From contig JAYWGM010000084.1 in the NCBI GenBank assembly GCA_043778225.1, positions 1 to 16,414 on the forward strand: DNA of 16,414 nucleotides, given 5' to 3'. Source of the DNA: Deinococcales bacterium (GTDB lineage: Bacteria; Deinococcota; Deinococci; Deinococcales; JAAFIG01). The notes under the pieces were generated by a model. It was not told where the DNA came from and did no database searches. It was given only the letters and a program-made list of their open reading frames with translations. The position numbers were made by a program, and so were the translations under genes. Shown in pieces: positions 625-16,414 of this stretch (position 1 is its first letter; every line of letters begins with the position of its first letter).

Positions 625-1398
625 GTGACCATTGCTGCTCTAGCTCCTACGTTTAATCCTGCGCCGCAAAACGCCCCTTTTTTGGTGGCTCGAGGGCTGC
701 ACAAGCGCTTTGGACAACGTGAAGTGGTGGCTGGGGTTGACCTTGAGTTAGCTCGAGGCGAAATCGTGGCGCTTTTTGGTCCAAACGGGGCTGGCAAGAC
801 CACCACTTTTTATATGATGGTTGGCTTTGTTAAACCCAATTCGGGGACAATTCATTTGTCGCAAGCCGATATTACGCGCTTACCGATGCACTCGCGGGCT
901 CGTTTGGGTTTAGGTTATTTGCCCCAAGAACCCAGTGCTTTTCGCAAAATGACGGCTCGAGATAATTTACTCGCCATTCTCGAGTACCAAAAATTAACTC
1001 CAACCGAGCGGATGGACAAAGCCAATTCTTTACTCGAGGAGTTTCAGTTGTCGCACCTCGCCGATAAAATGGCGTACACGCTGTCGGGTGGCGAACGGCG
1101 ACGGCTCGAGATTGCCCGTAGCCTGACCACCAATCCAGATTTTATTTTACTCGATGAGCCTTTTACCGGTGTGGACCCAAAAAGTGTCCGCGAAATCCAG
1201 CGCTTGATTCGTGAACTGCGCGAAAAACGTGGGCTTGGGGTTTTTATCACCGACCATGCGGTGCGCGAAACCGTGGCGATTACTGACCGCGTTTATTTGA
1301 TGTGGGATGGTAAGGTGGTCTTTAAGGGAACACCCGAAGAGTTTGCTCGCAATTCTGAAGTCCGTCAGTATTACTTGGGCGAGGAGTTTGAATTATAA
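625..1398 (+). CDS. lptB: LptB-family ABC transporter ATP-binding protein
   Basis: Walker [10 protein letters not shown], LptB-typical [16 protein letters not shown], signature [13 protein letters not shown], Walker [14 protein letters not shown]-loop ITDH, C-terminal YLGEEF. Confidence 0.93.
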
Positions 1399-3120: not shown

Positions 3121-5175
3121 CTAGCGATTATAAAACCGTATCATGGCTTGACGTTGCTTGGTTATCATCGAGGAGGCTACGCCCGTGGTCTGCACCAGCG
3201 TCATGGTAATTCCAATCCCCGAAGCTGGCGGAATCACTTCTGCGACGTTGTTATTTTGGCTGTAAATACCAATAAAATCTCCACCGTTAAGCAGATTATC
3301 GCCATTGACATCTTTGATTGCCGCCATCAGGTATGAGCCACTTGCCAAATTAGGAAAAGTGTAATTGGTACTCGAGCCAGTACCCGCTAAGACCACAACT
3401 TTACTTTTTGTGGTATCGCAATCATCGGTCGCCACCAAATAAAAACACGCCAATACCTCTGTGCCTGCAATGCTTGGCGCAACGACTGGCGAACTTTGTA
3501 CATTGACAGCTAAGGCTGCTTTTCGCACCAAATTGCCAGATGTCCCCTGAATGGTGATGTTATAAGTACCTACCCCAACCGTGGCGGTCAGCACCATGGT
3601 CAGAATTGAATTATTTTGGCTAAAAGTCATCCCGTTTGGCGCACCACCAACCGCCAAAGCAACCGACCCATTAAAGCCACCAACGCTGTCAATCGTCAAA
3701 GCAATTTGGGTACTCGAGCTTGGCAGTACCCGCAGACTCGAGGGGTTGAGGCTAAGACTAAAGTCTGGTGGAGTCGTACCAACACTCAGGGCTTGCAAGG
3801 CAGCTTGGGCATCAATTAGACCCGCACCACAATCGCTCGAGGTTTTGGCTGTCCCAGAACCCGTGCATTTAGTTGGAGTTAAACTTCGGGCGGTGCGGGT
3901 CAGAATTTCGAGCGCCCGCGCAAAAATCAGGCTTGGGTCACGGCTTTTCATTAAGGCAAGCACGCCAGCCACGTGTGGGGCTGCCATTGAAGTGCCTTGT
4001 AAGTAGCGAAAATTAAATTGACTGGTGGTGTCATTGCGCCCAATACTCAGTACGCCATCTGGAAAACCATCATTGTTCAGGTCTTGACTCGAGTCACCTC
4101 CAGGTGCCATCACATCTATACGTGCGCCAAAATTACTGTACGGCGCTCGAGCATCGAGAAAATCGGTTGCCCCAACCGTGATGACCCCACTGCAACTGGC
4201 AGGGGTAAATTGTGAAGCGTCCAAGTTATCGTTCCCAGCCGCCACAACAATCATCTTTCCGGCAGCGTTAATCGCATTGATCGTTTCTTGATAAGCAGGT
4301 GATTGAGCGCAGTTGTACTTACCACCCAAGCTCATATTGAGAATAGCTGCTGGATTGGGATTTGCCACCACGCCAACCACCGACAAGCCAGCCGCCCAGC
4401 GCATGGCATCAAAAATATCGGAAGACGAGCCTCCACCAACCCCCAAAACCCGTACTGGTAAAATTTTTGCACCCCACGAAACACCAGCCACCCCAATGCC
4501 ATTGTTGGTTGCAGCCGCCACAGTTCCTGCCACGTGCGAACCGTGGTAGCTGCCGCCAGCCCGATCTTCTGGATTATTATCTCGCCCATTGCCATCATTA
4601 GCCCGTTGAGGGTCTGAGATAAAGTCAAACCCAGGCAGAAGTTTCCCAACAAAATCCGGATGCCCACCCAGAATACCCGAGTCAATCACCGCCACCGTTA
4701 CGGCATTGCTCTCGCCTTTTTCGATGTCCCAGGCTTGGGGTAAATTGATGTTCTGGTAATGCCATTGCGAACTAAAAAACTCGTCATTGGGTACAGCCAC
4801 TGCTTGCATGATGTAATTCGGTTGCGCCCAGACCACATCGGCTCGAGCTTGCAGGGCTTGCACCACACCACCCACATCGGCGCTACTCGAGCGCATCAGG
4901 CGAGCGTTCTCGAGACCCAAAGCCCGAACATTTTGCAAGGTTGCCCCAGACACTTGTAAACTCGAGGCATTCTGTGCCGAGAGACCACTTTTGAATTTAA
5001 CCAGCACTTCGTTTGGTACAAAAGGCGCATCTGAACCCGAAGAACTCGAGGCTATGGTCACTGTACCCGAAATGCTTTTATTGACCATAGGTGGTGGGTC
5101 AACCACAGGTGGGGTACTCCCTCCGCAAGCAATGAGCGTTGCTATTAAGCCCAAACCAATCAATCGGTTTTTCAT
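3121..5175 (-). CDS. Lipoprotein S8 (subtilisin-like) serine peptidase with C-terminal beta-sandwich domains
   Basis: Signal/lipobox MKNRLIGLGLIATLIA-C; prodomain FVPNEVLVKFK; catalytic motifs VAVIDSG, YHGSHVAG, GTSMAAPHVAG; oxyanion AAGN; C-terminal DFSLSLNP Ig-like repeat and DVNGDN Ca-binding-like loop. Start 5175 is preferred over 5184 because CATAAT (5188-5183) lies 7 nt upstream. Confidence 0.92.
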   Translation of the reverse strand: MKNRLIGLGLIATLIACGGSTPPVVDPPPMVNKSISGTVTIASSSSGSDAPFVPNEVLVKFKSGLSAQNASSLQVSGATLQNVRALGLENARLMRSSSADVGGVVQALQARADVVWAQPNYIMQAVAVPNDEFFSSQWHYQNINLPQAWDIEKGESNAVTVAVIDSGILGGHPDFVGKLLPGFDFISDPQRANDGNGRDNNPEDRAGGSYHGSHVAGTVAAATNNGIGVAGVSWGAKILPVRVLGVGGGSSSDIFDAMRWAAGLSVVGVVANPNPAAILNMSLGGKYNCAQSPAYQETINAINAAGKMIVVAAGNDNLDASQFTPASCSGVITVGATDFLDARAPYSNFGARIDVMAPGGDSSQDLNNDGFPDGVLSIGRNDTTSQFNFRYLQGTSMAAPHVAGVLALMKSRDPSLIFARALEILTRTARSLTPTKCTGSGTAKTSSDCGAGLIDAQAALQALSVGTTPPDFSLSLNPSSLRVLPSSSTQIALTIDSVGGFNGSVALAVGGAPNGMTFSQNNSILTMVLTATVGVGTYNITIQGTSGNLVRKAALAVNVQSSPVVAPSIAGTEVLACFYLVATDDCDTTKSKVVVLAGTGSSTNYTFPNLASGSYLMAAIKDVNGDNLLNGGDFIGIYSQNNNVAEVIPPASGIGITMTLVQTTGVASSMITKQRQAMIRFYNR

Positions 5176-5247
5176 AAAAACCATTATGCCTTAGTTTTTG
5201 CGTTTCATCGCAAAATGATATTTTTAATCCATCTGTCACGCAAATAA

Positions 5248-6598: not shown

Positions 6599-9500
6599 AT
6601 GACGGTTGCCACCAGCCAACGCTATCAGTTTGTCCGTGAACTCGGGGCTGGCGCAATGGGTCAAGTTTCCTTGGCATTGGATACCCAAACCGGCACATTG
6701 GTGGCAATTAAAAAAATGCACGAGATGGTGGCGCTAACTGGTGGCGCTCGAATGCGCCGCGAGTTCAGGTCGTTATCGCAAATAGACCACCCAAACGTGG
6801 TGCGGGTTCTCGAGCTAGGCGAAGAACGCGGGATGCCATTTTTGGTGATGGAGTTTATCAAAGGGCAGGATTTATCCGATTGGCTTGGCACAAATCCAGA
6901 TTTCCCAACAATTGCCAAGATGTTTGCTGGAATTGCTGGCGCACTTGGGGCAGTTCACGAAAAAGGCGTGATTCACCGCGACCTTAAACCGGATAACATC
7001 CGTGTAACGACCGAAGGACAGCCTAAACTGATGGATTTTGGACTGGCAAAAACCATGGAAGGCACGGTCGCCTTGACCAAAGTTGGAGCGATGGTTGGCA
7101 CAGCCCTCTATATGGCACCCGAGCAATGCCGAGGCGCACAACTCGATTACCGCGCCGATTTATATGCCCTTGGGGCAGTGCTGTACTGGGCATTGACTGG
7201 GCAGCCACCATTTATGGGCGACAGCATTGTCCAAGTGATTATGCAGCATATTCAGCAAGCTCCTGTGCCGCCAAGAAGCCGCAACCCCAATATCCCCGAA
7301 AGCCTCGAGACGATTTGTTTAGCGCTGTTGGCAAAAAACCCTGCTGAACGCCCGAGCAGCGCCGCGTCCGTGCGTGAAGCCCTGCTCAGGGCATTAGAAG
7401 CACCGTTCTCGCAGACCATCCAACTCGAGGCGCAGTCGGCTCGAGCCGATGCGTTGCTGCTTGCGCCTTTGATTGGGCGGGAAAGCGAACTTGAGTCCTT
7501 GGCTGGTTTATTTGAAACTGGCTTGGGAGGCTTACATACTTTAGTCGGCGATGTTGGCACAGGTAAAACCCGACTTTTACGGGCGCTTGGCGAACGGGCT
7601 CAGATTTCTGGCGCTCGGCTTGGCATTGGCGAAGCGATTCAAGATGACCCAACCCCATTTGGAACAGTCAAACGTTTAATCGAAAACCTCGAGAAACACT
7701 ACCGCTTTATTTTTGATGAAGTCTCGGAGACCAGCCGTAGCGAATTGGCGCGTATTGCCCCACAATTTGGCAGCGCTCCGCCTTCGGATTCCAACCTGCC
7801 AGCCGAAGTCGCCCGACTGCGCTTATTTGAAGCCTTTACCGAACTTTTAGAGCGGGTCTCGAGCCTGACGGTTGTGGCGCTCGAGAACTTGCACTGGGCA
7901 GACGAGAGTACCCTCGCACTGTTGGCTCATGCCTTACGGGCTGCGCCAGATGCTCGCGTGATTATCAGCTACCGACTCGAGGATTTACCCGAAGGGCAAC
8001 TAGCTCCCAAAGGCTTCCCTAAGCCGCGTAAAACCATTCAGTTGACTGCCCTGACCGACGAGCAAATGCGTGAGTTACTACAAGCCCTGCTCGGCGGCGA
8101 AATCGAAACTGCCCTCGAGACCGAACTGGTTTCGCACGCTGGTGGCAACCCGTGGGTTTTAGAAGAACGCCTCAAAGCAATGCTCGAGAATGGCGCAATT
8201 CAACGCCGCGCCCAAGTCTATGAATGGAACAGAAGTCTGACAGGTGTTCCCGAAAGTCTTGGCGAATTGTTGGCGCATCGCTTGGCGGTTTTAGAGCCAA
8301 ATGTGCTTGAGTTTGCTCGGGCTGCCAGTATTTTAGGTCGGGCATTTTGGTTTGAAGATGCTCGAGCCATGCTCGACTGGAACGACGACGATGCTCTGGA
8401 TGCCTTAGAGAGTTTATCTCGAGCCAGATTGATTGCCGAAACGCCCGGCACAAACGGCGAAGGTTTTCGGTTTACCCACCCGATGTACAACGAACTGCTG
8501 CGCGAAGGCATCATGCGCTTAAAACGTAAACGCCTTCATGCCAAAGCTGCCACGCTGCGCTTAGGCAAAGCCGAACCACTCGAGCTTGCCGAGCATTGGT
8601 ACGCTGCCGAAAATTATCACCAAGCGCTCGAGTTTGCAATGCTGGCTGGTACAAGCGCCCAAGCTGCTTTTGCTTACCCACAAGCCGAACGGGCGTACCG
8701 CTTGGTTCTTGAGGCTGCCACCCATTTGGAAAACGACAACAGCGCCTCGGAAGCCCAGCAACTGCTGCGGATGCAAGCCAAGCACCATTTGGGCGAGGTC
8801 TTGAGTGCCTCTGGGAAAACAGCCGAAGCCCAAGATTTATGGCGCGATGTGATCGAACACGCCCAATGGTTGCCAAACAGCAGCGAGTTGATTGCTAAAG
8901 CCAAAGTCAACTTGGTTCGATTATTGCGTCAAGCAGGGTCAATAGAAACAGCCCTTGAGTTAATTGGTGAACCAAAAACGGAAGATGCCTTATTTACTCA
9001 ACTTAGTATTGAACTTGCAGCTACCTTACGTCAAAAAGATCCAAAAAAAGCCAGAGCGTATGCCCTTAGAGCGCTGACATACGCTAAGAAGCAAAACGAT
9101 TTTCTGGGCATTGCCCTTGCCCTTCGCAGTTTAGCAAAAACACTTGAAATAGGAAAACGAGCTATTTTTCTAGCAAAAAAAGCAGTTTTCTACGCATCGG
9201 AATCAACGAATGTTTACATTTTAGGAGCAATCTGGAACGATCTTGGCTTGGTCTATTACAATTCAAATGATCGAAAGAATGCCTTTGAGGCTTGGGAAAA
9301 TGCCCAAAAATATATTGAAACTGTTGGCGACATGAACTTACTGACCACCATCGAAACCAATAAAGCCTTGATTCTGATGCAGGAACTCAATTTTAACCAA
9401 GCCGAACAAATGTTTAACCGAACTGAACAGCTTTTTTCACGCATGGGGTTTGTTCAAAATGAACGATATGCCATCTATAATCGAGCCTTATGTTTGTATG

Positions 9501-10024
9501 CACAGAATCAATTGACCCAAGCACGAACCGAACTCGAAAAAATACGCGAACATCAACTCGAAAAAGTCTCACGTATCTGGGAAGCCCGCATCACCATCGA
9601 ACTTGGTGATGGCTTTGTCCTCGAAACACCAAAACTCGAGCCGCAGGAATATGGCTATGGTTATTACTTATTGACTCAAGCCTTACTTGCTTTGTCGTTT
9701 GGTGACTACCAAAAAGTCTGGGATATGACCATCGAAACAACCCATGACTCAGACTGGCATTGGGCATTGGCTCGAGTTCATGCAGGTTGGCGATTGGGAC
9801 AACTGGATGAGGAAGCCATTAAGAAAGTGCTTGAAGGTACTGCAAATGACCCTGCAATCACGACCGAATTAACCCAAGAATATGCCGAATTTATTCGTCT
9901 GGTGCTGGGAATATGGACATTAGAAAATCGTCGGCGGCTCGAGTTAGCAGCCCAACACTATTTGGCTACCCCAATTGGTGTGTTGGCTCGAGATGTCATG
10001 CTTTCACTAGCAGACGCTTCATAA
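6599..10024 (+). CDS. Hanks-type Ser/Thr kinase fused to a STAND-like P-loop ATPase and a TPR region
   Basis: Kinase motifs GAGAMG, VAIKK, HRDLKPDN, DFG, YMAPE, DLYALG. ATPase motifs LIGRESEL, Walker A GDVGTGKT, Walker B-like VALENLHWAD, GGNP, FRFTHP. Helical TPR-like C-terminus (WNDLGLVYY, YNRALCLY). No transmembrane segment seen. Confidence 0.9.
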   Translation: MTVATSQRYQFVRELGAGAMGQVSLALDTQTGTLVAIKKMHEMVALTGGARMRREFRSLSQIDHPNVVRVLELGEERGMPFLVMEFIKGQDLSDWLGTNPDFPTIAKMFAGIAGALGAVHEKGVIHRDLKPDNIRVTTEGQPKLMDFGLAKTMEGTVALTKVGAMVGTALYMAPEQCRGAQLDYRADLYALGAVLYWALTGQPPFMGDSIVQVIMQHIQQAPVPPRSRNPNIPESLETICLALLAKNPAERPSSAASVREALLRALEAPFSQTIQLEAQSARADALLLAPLIGRESELESLAGLFETGLGGLHTLVGDVGTGKTRLLRALGERAQISGARLGIGEAIQDDPTPFGTVKRLIENLEKHYRFIFDEVSETSRSELARIAPQFGSAPPSDSNLPAEVARLRLFEAFTELLERVSSLTVVALENLHWADESTLALLAHALRAAPDARVIISYRLEDLPEGQLAPKGFPKPRKTIQLTALTDEQMRELLQALLGGEIETALETELVSHAGGNPWVLEERLKAMLENGAIQRRAQVYEWNRSLTGVPESLGELLAHRLAVLEPNVLEFARAASILGRAFWFEDARAMLDWNDDDALDALESLSRARLIAETPGTNGEGFRFTHPMYNELLREGIMRLKRKRLHAKAATLRLGKAEPLELAEHWYAAENYHQALEFAMLAGTSAQAAFAYPQAERAYRLVLEAATHLENDNSASEAQQLLRMQAKHHLGEVLSASGKTAEAQDLWRDVIEHAQWLPNSSELIAKAKVNLVRLLRQAGSIETALELIGEPKTEDALFTQLSIELAATLRQKDPKKARAYALRALTYAKKQNDFLGIALALRSLAKTLEIGKRAIFLAKKAVFYASESTNVYILGAIWNDLGLVYYNSNDRKNAFEAWENAQKYIETVGDMNLLTTIETNKALILMQELNFNQAEQMFNRTEQLFSRMGFVQNERYAIYNRALCLYAQNQLTQARTELEKIREHQLEKVSRIWEARITIELGDGFVLETPKLEPQEYGYGYYLLTQALLALSFGDYQKVWDMTIETTHDSDWHWALARVHAGWRLGQLDEEAIKKVLEGTANDPAITTELTQEYAEFIRLVLGIWTLENRRRLELAAQHYLATPIGVLARDVMLSLADAS

Positions 10025-13493: not shown

Positions 13494-14117
13494 ATGAACA
13501 TTTTTTCTTTGATGCGCGAACCAATCAACACCATCACTCATGGAATCGGGGCTGTCATGGCACTCGTTTTTACCATTCTGATGGTGGTGCTGTCTGGTGG
13601 GCAGTGGGTTTTTGGCGTTTTTGGTATCAGCATGGTGATTTGTTATACCGCCAGCACCTTGCATCATGGAGTGCGTTCGAGTGCCACAATCGAAGAAGGC
13701 TTACGCCGTTTTGACCACAGCGCTATTTATTTGCTGATTGCTGGAACATACACCCCAATTCTGTGGAATGTTCTCGAGGGACAAGCCCGTCTGTACTGGC
13801 TGCTAGGAGTCTGGGGCATGGCTGGACTGGGCATCGTCTTAAAAACTTTTTCAAGACCTCCAGAGTGGCTTTCCTTGTCTATTTATGTTGGCATGGGCTG
13901 GTTAGCGGTGCTGCTCTTGCCTAAATTTATTTCTGGTTTATCGTTGGCGGCACTGGTTGCCCTCGTGATTGGTGGACTGTGTTATACCTTTGGCGTACCA
14001 TTTTATGCGCTCGGCACTCGAGTCTTAAAAAAGGGTTTATGGACATCGCACGAAATCTGGCATTTATTTGTCTTGGCTGGCAGCATAAGCCATTTTGTGA
14101 TGGCAATCAATCTTTAA
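13494..14117 (+). CDS. Haemolysin III / PAQR family membrane protein (TrhA/YqfA-like)
   Basis: EPINTITHGIG, ASTLHH, RRFDHSAIYLLIAGTYTP, YVGMGW, GGLCYTFG, HEIWHLFVLAGS..HF; about 7 hydrophobic segments. Confidence 0.92.
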   Translation: MNIFSLMREPINTITHGIGAVMALVFTILMVVLSGGQWVFGVFGISMVICYTASTLHHGVRSSATIEEGLRRFDHSAIYLLIAGTYTPILWNVLEGQARLYWLLGVWGMAGLGIVLKTFSRPPEWLSLSIYVGMGWLAVLLLPKFISGLSLAALVALVIGGLCYTFGVPFYALGTRVLKKGLWTSHEIWHLFVLAGSISHFVMAINL

Positions 14118-15756
14118 TTTTTGGATGGGTGCTGTTGCGTCCAGCATTTTTTGCGGCATACAAAGCCCGGTCTGCAATTTCAAACAACTTATCTTGATGT
14201 TCAAACGATGTATCATCACACCAGCCAAGGCTAATGGTGACTTTTAAGTCTGGATCAATATCGGTGAAATCCAGCAAAGCAATGACCTCACGGATTCGTT
14301 CACACAAACGGTAGACCGCCACACCACCAATCCCCGGCAACACCAAAGCAAATTCCTCGCCACCATAACGAGCCACCAAATCATGTTCTCGGCAATGATT
14401 GTGCAGAATTTTAGCAATGCGTTGCAAAACTTGATCGCCTGAAGCGTGCAAATATTTATCGTTGACCAACTTAAAATGATCAATATCCAATAAAACAACA
14501 CTGAATTTGGTACGTGCTTCTCGAGCTTCGGCAAAGACTCGAGCCACAAAAGTTTCTAAAGTCCGACGGTTGGCAAGACCAGTTAAGGCATCCTCGCTGG
14601 CTTGACGATCCAATTGGGCATTTAAGTGGGTTAATTCTTCAGAACGCTGTTGATACCAAATGGTTTCGCGGCGAATGTTTTCGCGTTCGATTTTGACGGC
14701 TAAAGCCTGTGCTTGACGTTCGGCGCTCTCGGTACGCACCAAAGAATCAAATCTATAAAACAGTTCAAAATGCTCCAAAGCCTGTTCAAATTCTCTACGC
14801 GCCCGAAAGACCTTATAAAACTCTTTATGCACCTCGGACAAAAGTTTCTTAGCAGTATTAACCTCAAAATGCGCTCGAGCTTGGGTGAGACACTTTAATG
14901 CAACCTCAAACTGACGTTGCGACGCAAAAACCCGTCCAAACTGCAATTCGCACTCACCAAGCGACTCGAGCGAACCATAGCGTGTTGCATGAACTGTCGC
15001 CTGTTTAACTGCCTCTTCAGCAACATCAAAGCGCTCGAGACCACACATGATTTTAGACTTAATGGTGTAGGCATCAACAAGTAAAGCCTGATCATCCGCC
15101 CGAATTAAATAGGTTAGTGCCAAATCCAAATGCTTGAGCGCAATGTGTAAGTCGTCAGGTTGAAATCCTGCACCCTTGTCTTCGATAAGCACATTCGCTA
15201 GTGCCATCAGCGCACCACCTTCGGCTCGAGTTCGTCCCATTTTGCGTGCCAAAGTAATGGCTTGGTGAGCATAATCAATCGCAATGCTCCAGCCCTTCAA
15301 ATGCCGATGCGTTTGACTCAGATAAATCAGGCTGGCTAGTCGCCCACCTTCATTTTGATGGGTTGCAGCTAACTCAAGCGTATCTTCAAAAATCTGAAGG
15401 GCATCGGAATAATCTCCGAGATCTAAATAAAGCGTCCCAATTTCTACTTGACAGGCTATTGCCATTGCAAAAGCCTCAGACAAACAATACAAATCAAAGG
15501 ATTTAAAGTAATTTTCCAGAGCTTGCTTAATTTCAGATTTTCGCAAATGAACTTTGGCGATCCAGCGTAGTCCAAAAGCACGCATGGTATGTTGATTTTC
15601 ACTTGCAGCAATGAGTAACTGTGTACCTAACTCCAATTGAGTCTCAGCAGAACTTTCTATAAATTCAATGTAAACCGCACTAAAGACAGCAGGCATTTCC
15701 TCAGCAATAGAAACACGGCTGATTCGATTGACAGCGCTCTGGATATTTGGTTTCAT
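14107..15756 (-). CDS. Cytoplasmic TPR-domain diguanylate cyclase (TPR-coiled coil-GGDEF)
   Basis: About 340 aa of TPR-like helices, coiled linker, DALTGLANRR, LLDIDHFKLVND, I-site RxxD (REHD), active site RYGGEEF, ADRALYAAKNAGRN. No signal peptide or transmembrane segment. The 3' end overlaps the convergent hlyIII gene by 11 nt. Confidence 0.92.
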   Translation of the reverse strand: MKPNIQSAVNRISRVSIAEEMPAVFSAVYIEFIESSAETQLELGTQLLIAASENQHTMRAFGLRWIAKVHLRKSEIKQALENYFKSFDLYCLSEAFAMAIACQVEIGTLYLDLGDYSDALQIFEDTLELAATHQNEGGRLASLIYLSQTHRHLKGWSIAIDYAHQAITLARKMGRTRAEGGALMALANVLIEDKGAGFQPDDLHIALKHLDLALTYLIRADDQALLVDAYTIKSKIMCGLERFDVAEEAVKQATVHATRYGSLESLGECELQFGRVFASQRQFEVALKCLTQARAHFEVNTAKKLLSEVHKEFYKVFRARREFEQALEHFELFYRFDSLVRTESAERQAQALAVKIERENIRRETIWYQQRSEELTHLNAQLDRQASEDALTGLANRRTLETFVARVFAEAREARTKFSVVLLDIDHFKLVNDKYLHASGDQVLQRIAKILHNHCREHDLVARYGGEEFALVLPGIGGVAVYRLCERIREVIALLDFTDIDPDLKVTISLGWCDDTSFEHQDKLFEIADRALYAAKNAGRNSTHPKIKD

Positions 15757-15815
15757 AGTAAAGACCCAAACACAAGTCTGGATAATACCCTAAACTTGTC
15801 TCTGCCCTCTAACGA

Positions 15816-15983
15816 CTAGCAGTCGCTTCCACAAAAACGTTTTGCCCCTGAAGGTGGCGATGTTGGTTTATCTTCTGGACTGGTGCTGGATTCGCTCGAG
15901 ACTTGATCAACTCCGCCAGCCGCAACTGTTGCTCCAAGAAGACAAAGTAATAGCCCCAACCCGATTATTAATTTCTTAATCAT
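15816..15983 (-). CDS. Small secreted peptide (55 aa), candidate signalling pro-peptide
   Basis: MIKKLIIGLGLLLCLLGATVAA (Sec-type signal), a Ser/Thr/Pro/acidic linker, then KR-FCGSDC-stop. GGGGG SD-like run 5 nt upstream of ATG 15983; ends 59 nt before the TPR-GGDEF start. Confidence 0.75.
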   Translation of the reverse strand: MIKKLIIGLGLLLCLLGATVAAGGVDQVSSESSTSPEDKPTSPPSGAKRFCGSDC

Positions 15984-16007
15984 TTGAACCCCCGTTTGAT
16001 CACACAA

Positions 16008-16061
16008 AATGTACACAAACTGACCTTACAGCAGACTTACTGTAAGAATTTCGTAAGAATT
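16008..16061 (-). promoter_or_regulatory. Promoter/operator of the peptide gene: -10 TACATT plus four CTTAC/GTAAG boxes
   Basis: Minus-strand -10 TACATT at 16013-16008. CTTAC at 16025 and 16036, GTAAG at 16042 and 16053 (11-bp period within each pair, dyad centred on 16041). No consensus -35. Confidence 0.6.
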
Positions 16062-16101: not shown

Positions 16102-16151
16102 AAATGTGAAAAACCACACATTTATATCGAATACGTGTGAAAAAATTCATA
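16102..16151. promoter_or_regulatory. Two CRP-family-like sites
   Basis: AAATGTGA-AAAACC-ACACATTT (16102-16123) and TGTGA-AAAAAT-TCATA (16136-16151), each one mismatch from TGTGA-N6-TCACA. Confidence 0.5.
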
Positions 16152-16171
16152 CTTTAGCCAAAATACAGACC

Positions 16172-16199
16172 TTGACAGCCCCCACAAAAACGCTATACT
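16172..16199 (+). promoter_or_regulatory. Sigma70-type promoter for the T-box leader
   Basis: TTGACA (16172-16177), 16-nt spacer, TATACT (16194-16199); predicted +1 near 16206, right at the T-box 5' end. Confidence 0.8.
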
Positions 16200-16205
16200 C
16201 GAGAC

Positions 16206-16414
16206 AGCAACGACTGGGAAAGTACCGCGCCGCGCACCAACAGAGAAGTGTTCTCGAGGCTGAAAGGAACACTGGGAAAGGCAAACGCGAGAAAGTCACC
16301 CACGAGCATGAGGAAAGAACAGGTGGGCGGTCACACGCCCACACCAGTAGAATCCTCTGGGAGCGCCCATCACAGCGTAGCAAGAGCGCTCGACCAGTTT
16401 TTTAAGAACTCGGC
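16206..16414 (+). ncRNA. T-box riboswitch leader, Val (GUC) specifier; antiterminator lies beyond the window
   Basis: Stem I: basal GA motifs, TGGG(16215-18)/CCCA(16299-302), AGTA (16221-24), CGCG/CGCG, AG bulge AGAGA (16242-46), AGTGTTC/GAACACT (16247-53/16267-73) closing a GCTGAAAG distal loop, specifier loop GAA-A-GTC-A (16291-98). Stem II: GAGGA/TCCTC (16310-14/16353-57) with purine-rich internal loop and GTGGGCG/CGCCCAC. Confidence 0.85.

Follow-up and report, generated by a model that had tools for sequence, protein, structure and literature searches.

The locus described here raises the question of whether a bacterium of the order Deinococcales makes a peptide signal and reads it with a receptor that is itself a diguanylate cyclase, that is, an enzyme forming the second messenger cyclic di-GMP (c-di-GMP). 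It lies on contig JAYWGM010000084.1 of assembly GCA_043778225.1, a genome of 4.03 Mb in 107 contigs; the entire contig, 16,414 nucleotides (nt) long, was analysed and is called the window below. Two open reading frames (ORFs) on its minus strand are at issue: a small one of 55 codons plus stop (15816..15983; ATG at 15983, stop at 15816-15818), which would encode a pro-peptide, and one for a 549-residue protein (14107..15756; ATG at 15756) with a tetratricopeptide repeat (TPR) array and a GGDEF domain, the putative receptor. In signalling systems of the RRNPP type, an adjacent exported pro-peptide is processed, re-imported and bound by a cytoplasmic TPR receptor. The initial annotation of this DNA proposed an analogous module that controls c-di-GMP synthesis directly, and the ORF scan puts both frames where that annotation had them, the small ORF standing 59 nt upstream of the receptor gene on the same strand (spacer 15757..15815, minus strand). 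Judged by sequence comparison, the gene pair is almost certainly real and functionally linked; that direct peptide-to-TPR signalling controls c-di-GMP synthesis is somewhat more probable than not.

The small gene and its pairing with the receptor gene

The small ORF is, by every sequence measure applied, a genuine gene. Nineteen genomes of one uncultured Deinococcales family formed the comparison set, and the search for receptors took in 41 related genomes. A Shine-Dalgarno run, GGGGG or GGAGG, stands before the start codon in all 14 complete orthologous small ORFs; in the window it is GGGGG, 5 nt ahead of the ATG (15989..15993, minus strand). The ratio of nonsynonymous to synonymous substitution (dN/dS, Nei-Gojobori) lay between 0.06 and 0.59 in the 23 of 30 within-genus pairs for which it was computable, namely those with unsaturated synonymous sites. 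Searched with a profile, a collection of 5.8 billion proteins yielded 29 homologues, all unnamed or 'hypothetical', 51-61 residues long apart from one called at 88, and all terminated by C-x3-4-C. Within the source genome a family profile found a single member (E 5e-18; next best 0.25), and only 4 of its 121,040 combinations of ORF and start (30-100 residues) join a signal-peptide-like beginning to a C-x3-5-C end. One might still take the frame for a chance opening or for a non-coding regulatory region, since it is short, has a low-complexity middle and finds no match in Pfam or NCBIfam. That view is effectively refuted, and hardly credible, because frame, start, stop position and Shine-Dalgarno run are conserved over five genera, dN/dS is below 1, and the 29 database entries, which are independent, share the architecture.

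The initial annotation expected a short signal-peptide ORF to be found consistently just upstream of such TPR-GGDEF genes, and among the orthologues of the receptor this is the case. With the TPR region alone (alignment A1), an orthologue was found in 15 of the 19 genomes (E <= 4.9e-134; the next class of matches starts at 2.5e-67); identity to the window protein is about 70% in the same genus, 52% in one distant member of it and 33-36% in four other genera. A co-oriented small ORF lies directly upstream of all 15. One of these copies, that of genome G012, is cut by a contig end, with the frame open to the end and finishing ...SISCGRQGC. The peptide profile (A2) matched in 14 of the 19 genomes, always at the receptor locus, and gave two further weak matches (E 0.002-0.005), both confined to the signal-peptide portion of other frames. 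It found nothing in the receptor-less genomes G002, G008 and G009 (82, 74 and 91% complete), and G007 (94% complete), which also is without the receptor, gave only one of these two weak matches. Among the 19 genomes no receptor thus lacks its peptide gene, and no convincing peptide gene stands without a receptor. A scan of metagenomes with the TPR alignment added one distant locus only, and no further pairs; a scan of a genome collection gave 12 loci, all in genomes already in the comparison set.

The genes around the pair change from genus to genus. In the genus of the window, a T-box-like leader and a NUDIX gene lie on one side and genes for HlyIII and xylose isomerase on the other; in the second genus the neighbours are a SWIM-like protein on one side and agmatine-deiminase-like and HD-GYP-like proteins on the other; in the third, an HtrA-like protease with a LuxR-type regulator, and an EamA transporter; in the fourth, a Fer4 protein, and a racemase with RNase PH; and in the fifth, CN hydrolase and MIP. 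Since the flanks differ in all five, the peptide and receptor genes move as a unit. The spacer between them is 35-221 nt across orthologues, being 35-70 nt in three genera and 164-221 nt in one. That of the window holds no convincing terminator. It does hold a weak hairpin beside the receptor start (15764-15783; eight pairs, three of them G-C), which overlaps the ribosome-binding region of the receptor gene.

The predicted product has the build of an exported precursor. In the window its N-terminus carries Lys/Arg, a hydrophobic stretch and an A-x-A-like site (TVAA/GG, the slash marking the predicted cut), giving a signal peptide of about 22 residues; a variable middle rich in Ser, Pro and Asp and the C-terminal tip KRFCGSDC (C-x3-C) follow. 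The orthologues, 44-60 residues in length, share M-x-K-K with a hydrophobic run, a small-x-small site and a variable middle, and finish in Cys-x(3-4)-Cys at the extreme C-terminus, with tips such as FCGEGC, FCNGDC, YCGSDC, WCGGGNC, LCTGEGC, SCGGNGC, LCNGGC, LCSGGNC, MCGGGSC and PCGGGC. On inspection, Sec-type signal features are recognisable in each of the 14 complete orthologues (MxKK followed by a hydrophobic run and ALA/K, AMA/W, ISA/G or VAA/G); a crude signal-peptide rule recognised 12 of these known positives and missed two, so that single misses by it are possible.

Conservation is unevenly spread along the precursor. In one genus-type (22 distinct sequences) identity is 98% over the first 24 residues, 34% over the middle and 51% over the last eight, and in the window type (seven sequences) it is 59% over the signal part, 41% over the middle and 60% over the tip. 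The 30 peptide sequences have 25 different tips, with the loop type C-x3-C in 25 sequences and C-x4-C in five, and 29 of them have Lys or Arg no more than four residues ahead of the first Cys. A conserved leader, a disposable middle and a short tip that diversifies on a fixed frame resemble the pro-peptides of secreted signals; the comparison is drawn with Phr, PapR and AimP. Two other classes of small protein were considered and rejected. A lipoprotein is contradicted by the signal-peptide Cys, which is missing in 3 of 14 orthologues and has no lipobox before it, and the precursor of a ribosomally synthesized and post-translationally modified peptide by the Sec-type signal peptide and by the flanks, in which no modifying enzyme recurs.

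The TPR sensor and the cyclase domain

The second protein was described in the initial annotation as a soluble TPR-array protein with an intact GGEEF motif and an RxxD I-site, a description on which Pfam and alignment with WspR agree. Neither a signal peptide nor a membrane helix was seen in it, and its AlphaFold2 (AF2) model is all-helical from residue 3. The TPR sensor domain takes up residues 1 to about 320 (14797..15756, minus strand) in some eight helix pairs, as indicated by Pfam (TPR_12 / TPR_MalT at residues 93-295), AF2 and Foldseek; the AF2 model of this region, built on a 13-sequence alignment, is a solenoid of 17 helices with a predicted local distance difference test (pLDDT) of 90.7. 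A linker or 'stalk' follows at about residues 321-386 (14599..14796, minus strand) and is conserved across the orthologues in alignment A1. The final long helix of the model spans residues 323-369, where the model ends, and leads into the GGDEF domain; we infer that it acts as a signalling helix.

The GGDEF domain itself (residues 387-541; 14134..14598, minus strand) is matched by Pfam with E 1.1e-39 and by TIGR00254 with 149.5 bits against a cut-off of 37.4. Alignment with WspR (3i5a, E 4.8e-31), which extends over the length of the domain, lays REHD, the RxxD I-site (14380-14391, minus strand), over RPSD and, five residues further on, GGEEF (14350-14364, minus strand) over GGEEF. As far as sequence can tell, then, the cyclase motifs are intact, with GG(D/E)EF, the metal- and GTP-binding residues and RxxD all present. 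Among the NCBIfam equivalogs none matched at cut-off, the best being SiaD with 157.8 bits against 290. Like cyclases of the WspR and PleD type, the protein has both RxxD and GGEEF and a helical stalk joining sensor to catalytic domain; the sensor of those cyclases is a phosphorylated receiver domain, whereas here it is a TPR array. In one genus an HD_5 (HD-GYP-type) gene lies two genes downstream of the cassette in convergent orientation (L028 5600-6697, minus strand), and in that genus only its product is a possible phosphodiesterase partner for c-di-GMP.

When the TPR model was compared with the PDB by Foldseek, TPR domains of LGN/Pins ranked first, all of them in complex with extended peptides (best 3sf4, E 8.4e-10; 7ep7, root mean square deviation (rmsd) 4.3 A over 294 columns). 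These have an eight-repeat superhelix similar in length to the TPR region of the receptor and bind extended peptides in the inner groove. LGN and Pins are, however, eukaryotic scaffold proteins with 12-16% identity, so the likeness is one of TPR array type, not of relatedness or function. The Rap receptors appear from rank 27, after LGN and designed TPRs: they are RapJ-PhrC (4gyo; E 4e-7, TMq 0.62), the Rap of phage phi3T with its pheromone, RapH, RapF and the pLS20 Rap, and the Rap matches as a group have E 4e-7 to 6e-6 and TMq of about 0.6.

A putative peptide-to-c-di-GMP module and its rivals

Sequence and model comparison shows the two genes, the coding status of the small one, their strict co-occurrence and adjacency, the anatomy of the peptide, an intact cyclase domain and a TPR fold of the kind that binds peptides. 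From this we infer a scheme in which export, the site of processing, the disulfide, uptake, binding to the receptor and the direction of the response are all putative. The small gene would give a pro-peptide that is exported by Sec and cut by signal peptidase I; the variable pro-region would then be trimmed, probably after the conserved Lys/Arg, to release a C-terminal peptide of about 6-9 residues, in which the two cysteines could close a disulfide loop of five or six residues. Having accumulated outside the cell, the peptide would re-enter it, Opp/Dpp-type ABC importers being the candidate route, and would bind the concave face of the cytoplasmic TPR solenoid. Binding may alter the geometry of the stalk helix and, through it, the GGDEF dimer, so that c-di-GMP synthesis goes up or down. 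The source genome encodes 14 SBP_bac_5 (Opp/Dpp-type) peptide-binding proteins and four DsbA-like Thioredoxin_4 proteins, both of which are permissive evidence only.

How far this scheme corresponds to the RRNPP systems needs to be stated with care. Common to both are an adjacent small gene for a predicted exported pro-peptide with a conserved or diversifying C-terminal tip, and a cytoplasmic receptor whose sensor is a TPR solenoid. In Bacillus, subtilisin-type proteases process Phr peptides; such proteases are abundant here and genomically linked to homologous TPR sensors, which recalls that processing. The differences are equally clear. RRNPP receptors have an N-terminal helix-turn-helix domain or three-helix phosphatase/anti-activator domain, whereas the effector here is a C-terminal diguanylate cyclase; moreover, in the cassette the peptide gene lies upstream of the receptor gene, no genome holds more than one pair, the tip takes the form of a Cys-x3-4-Cys loop, and the host belongs to the Deinococcota. 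Because the defining N-terminal effector domain is absent, the cassette is not a member of the RRNPP group and at best 'works like' one. The description that we consider somewhat probable is that of an RRNPP-like and probably convergent peptide-to-c-di-GMP module. The peptide-communication module put forward in the initial annotation is thus supported in part, by the pairing, the diversity of flanks and the coding status of the small gene, with weak support from the complex model.

A number of observations weigh against the peptide-to-c-di-GMP reading. No such small ORF accompanies the three other TPR-GGDEF proteins of the source genome, the second-tier paralogues (L053-L059) or the best 22 out-of-family loci from a 301-genome sample of the phylum (a tally that includes genome G265, which is flagged as unpublished and on which no claim rests), so that only one orthologous group shows the pairing. 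The better structural match of LGN than of Rap means that the fold indicates a 'peptide-binding type' only. The receptor shows no sequence similarity to RRNPP proteins and no RRNPP-specific match in Pfam or NCBIfam, and there is a single upstream peptide gene per genome, where Rap-Phr systems come as swarms of paralogues. Any covariation of peptide tip and TPR surface over the 15 related pairs is inseparable from shared descent. In the cytoplasm the disulfide of such a loop would be reduced, and the envelope has an outer layer that a diffusible peptide must cross twice. The initial annotation had also suggested modelling the receptor together with the peptide. A single complex job, combining the TPR alignment with the peptide alignment over residues 23-55 (the 33-residue product expected after signal peptidase), gave a score of 0.57 against 0.02 for the best control; this is weak support for the reading, in a score range where, according to the tool, predictions fail more often than they succeed if the guess was not a likely one from the start. 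Of 157 solved complexes 116 pass the score mark, as do 2 of 215 mismatched pairs, and scores up to 0.60 include 18 of the 157 solved complexes and both passing mismatches. Contact agreement between runs was at least 68%, and the pLDDT of the partner at least 47.

The main rival supposes co-expression without binding: the small protein would be an exported product with an extracellular job of its own, merely made together with the cyclase, while the TPR array senses something else, either other peptides or a protein partner. That job might be done by a metal- or redox-active Cys-x3-Cys tail, or the product might serve in the matrix, act as an antimicrobial, or be cut by the S8 proteases of the lineage or inhibit them. 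Conserved adjacency, it is true, proves a functional link and not binding, and the complex score is weak. Paralogous TPR-GGDEF genes pair with S8 proteases, so the theme could be an exported factor co-regulated with c-di-GMP, and a GTAAG-N6-GTAAG element common to three such operons (see below) fits co-regulation by a third factor. However, the signal peptide is better conserved than the 'mature' part, of which only the last 6-9 residues keep their frame; exported proteins with a structural or enzymatic role seldom show such a pattern, which pro-peptides typically do. Added to this, the cyclase has no sensory domain besides the TPR array, and peptide and receptor are never apart in the 19 genomes. 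We therefore regard this alternative as rather unlikely.

A link inside the cell, or in cis, is less probable still. In one form of it the TPR array would bind the tail of unexported precursor, as a chaperone or a gauge of secretion; in another the small ORF would be a regulatory leader, as are SecM, MifM and VemP, the translation or export of which sets downstream translation. The small ORF is upstream, co-oriented and 35-70 nt away in three genera, conservation in it falls on the signal peptide and on the final residues ahead of the stop, and the weak hairpin overlaps the ribosome-binding region of the receptor gene; these points speak for such a link. Against this, the spacer of 164-221 nt in one genus is long for translational coupling, the tip with its 25 variants in 30 sequences is highly variable and unlike an arrest motif, and the downstream gene encodes no secretion factor. 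Only about 33 residues follow the signal peptide, which would therefore be barely out of the ribosome tunnel at termination, making force-sensing arrest unlikely.

If the peptide-to-c-di-GMP reading is true, cell-cell signalling would be wired straight to the second messenger of biofilm formation and motility, with no transcription factor between, and such a signalling logic would have arisen in a phylum far removed from the Bacillota, whose cell envelope is built differently. Passages of two surveys of RRNPP systems (PMC10075063 and PMC12700828) treat TPR-read peptide signals as peculiar to Bacillota together with the phages and plasmids of these bacteria, with transcription or phosphorelay control as the outputs; PMC12700828, a structural phylogeny, describes the family as one of Bacillota. 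A term search of this paper and of PMC10075063, the RRNPP_detector paper, gave no occurrence of GGDEF, diguanylate, c-di-GMP or Deinococ. Searches of an open-access library gave nothing relevant on 'TPR-GGDEF' or on RRNPP/RNPP with diguanylate cyclase or Deinococcus, nor, among the matches listed, on TPR, GGDEF and quorum-sensing peptides together or on peptide pheromones of Deinococcota.

Upstream DNA and related arrangements in the lineage

The initial annotation also placed a structured operator upstream of the pair. A nested dyad is indeed present there, CTTAC-N6-CTTAC-A-GTAAG-N6-GTAAG (16025..16057, minus strand), and is a candidate operator or promoter element. The larger conserved block beyond it is a T-box-like leader that points the other way, and the strong nucleotide conservation upstream belongs to this leader, not to an operator of the pair. 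It begins at about 16150 and runs past the contig end (~16150-16414, plus strand), with a near-consensus promoter, TTGACA-16-TATACT, at 16172-16199 (plus strand). Rfam and tRNA scans of the window gave no match at curated thresholds; in five orthologous loci RF00230 matches over its full length with 55.9-86.6 bits (E 8e-10 to 1e-17), the curated cut-off being 93. In relatives the leader was located at L002 818-1069, L004 3571-3817 and L006 792-1019, and a NUDIX-domain gene lies beyond it.

The half of the dyad nearer the small gene, GTAAG-N6-GTAAG (16025-16040, minus strand), is a direct repeat with 11-bp phasing, and is the part that is conserved across genera. Over 14 peptide loci it is exact in ten (at -57 to -75) and degenerate in three, and in one it is cut by a contig end; CTTAC-N(22-23)-GTAAG is found at about -71 to -81 in each of the six genomes that represent the genus, where chance would give 0.0003 per 130 nt. 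The source genome holds ten GTAAG-N6-GTAAG sites where 2.3 are expected. TGTAAG-like repeat sites, all on the minus strand, precede operons at six places (contigs C19 27937, C35 21628, C37 29124, C84 16040, C91 31461 and C95 16792). Three of the operons hold TPR-GGDEF genes, namely that of the window and the S8-TPR-GGDEF operons on C35 and C37; the remaining three comprise a PP2C-like phosphatase gene, a gene for a 607-residue lipoprotein-like product and a four-gene string. The element also stands ahead of S8 genes in 5 of the 24 loci examined, and the GTAAG sites are possibly the regulon of one factor. Direct repeats phased at 11 bp resemble the binding sites of winged-helix regulators. The peptide genes of a TPR-winged-helix family found in these genomes (see below) have no promoter-proximal GTAAG repeat in 23 loci, so that this family is not obviously the binder of the element.

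The paralogous TPR-GGDEF genes of the source genome, with TPR sensors homologous to that of the receptor, are associated with exported proteases. On C35 (18668-21587, minus strand) and C37 (25949-28930, minus strand), a TPR-GGDEF paralogue is preceded by the gene for an exported S8 subtilase with a lipoprotein-type signal, and the fourth TPR-GGDEF gene of the genome, on C56 (13620-16620), is divergent to another S8 gene. Among 24 S8 loci of the family (L140-L163), several of which are cut by contig ends, 11 have a TPR ORF (A1 profile, E 1e-21 to 1e-41) within 1.5 kb after the protease gene, and two more are the first gene of S8-S8-TPR-GGDEF strings. The window contig has an S8 gene of its own, for a 687-residue subtilase with a fervidolysin-like pro-domain (3121-5184, minus strand), as well as a gene for a 1141-residue Ser/Thr kinase-AAA_16-TPR protein (6599-10024, plus strand); no other genus shows either of them linked to the cassette.

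A second family of TPR proteins, 514-590 residues long, combines an N-terminal TPR array with a C-terminal OmpR/PhoB-like winged helix. No homology to the TPR family of the receptor is detectable beyond the TPR itself (BLASTP E 0.5). The model of the last 90 residues has a pLDDT of 84 and resembles YycF, AfsR and PhoB in Foldseek at an rmsd of 2.2-2.6 A, the E-values being only about 4e-3; Pfam Trans_reg_C matches 3 of 15 members with E 0.012. Members occur in 18 of the 19 family genomes, at 0-6 copies per genome. Here too a co-oriented small ORF stands ahead, with a hydrophobic N-terminal anchor and, as its tip, ...DDPKPCxxC or ...DDPKxGxGG; in the source genome such pairs lie at C27 11095-12826 (minus strand; L087/L088), where a 55-residue ORF ending ...LVEDPKPCAIGC is 19 nt ahead of a 514-residue TPR protein, and at C80 12454-14296 (minus strand). 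The small ORF was present upstream in 14 of 20 fetched loci (L089-L106 among them), five being truncated and one being intact without it. Matches to the TPR-winged-helix family (E <= 1e-25) were found in 60 of 112 and 32 of 62 genomes of two other families of the order, which were sampled as near-complete genomes, with the small ORF in 15 of 21 fetched loci (L117-L137); in the two remaining families of the order none was found (0 of 103 and 0 of 14 genomes). SARP/AfsR regulators, with a winged helix and TPR, are comparable to this side family only, and differ from it in that here the winged helix is C-terminal, BTAD and NB-ARC are lacking and a small exported ORF lies ahead. Downstream, some of the loci also carry a gene for an M29 peptidase or for a WYL-WCX regulator.

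The S8/TPR pairs and the pairs of small ORF and TPR-winged-helix gene together show that this lineage has repeatedly combined an exported peptide or protease with a TPR sensor in the cytoplasm. These patterns are no proof of the reading proposed for the window cassette. A wider view, which we hold tentatively and with more doubt than confidence, would be that Deinococcales have a peptide-based cell-cell communication of their own, evolved independently of RRNPP, in which cytoplasmic TPR receptors read small exported pro-peptides with diversifying tips; the output would be c-di-GMP synthesis in the window cassette and winged-helix DNA binding in the second family, which is far wider and spans three families of the order, and S8 proteases would supply processing or additional peptide cues. 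Were this so, Deinococcota would have yielded their first example of peptide quorum sensing, and a peptide pheromone receptor would for the first time prove to be a diguanylate cyclase itself. The winged-helix pairs in the two other families and the S8/TPR pairs in this one would allow genetic testing.

Three further small features were seen near TPR-GGDEF genes outside the orthologous group of the receptor. Ahead of the second-tier paralogues of one genus, an upstream frame of 50-69 residues ending ...RTRPRA.IIIFDNFFMAVSRMRLSQAFLDL is kept in five genomes (L053 1118-1315, L054 1153-1305, L056 37-189, L057 1109-1318 and L058 2787-2996); it carries no signal peptide and may represent either a short gene or conserved non-coding DNA that happens to be open in this frame. 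As a single case, a divergent signal-peptide ORF of 43 residues, Pro-rich and ending ...SQWAG, was noted (L066 1012-1143, minus strand), some 300 nt upstream of an out-of-family TPR-GGDEF homologue. Finally, L065, one of the two closest out-of-family receptor homologues (E 1.7e-53), has directly upstream a gene (764-1216, plus strand) that by eye resembles the end of an OppC/DppC-type peptide ABC permease.

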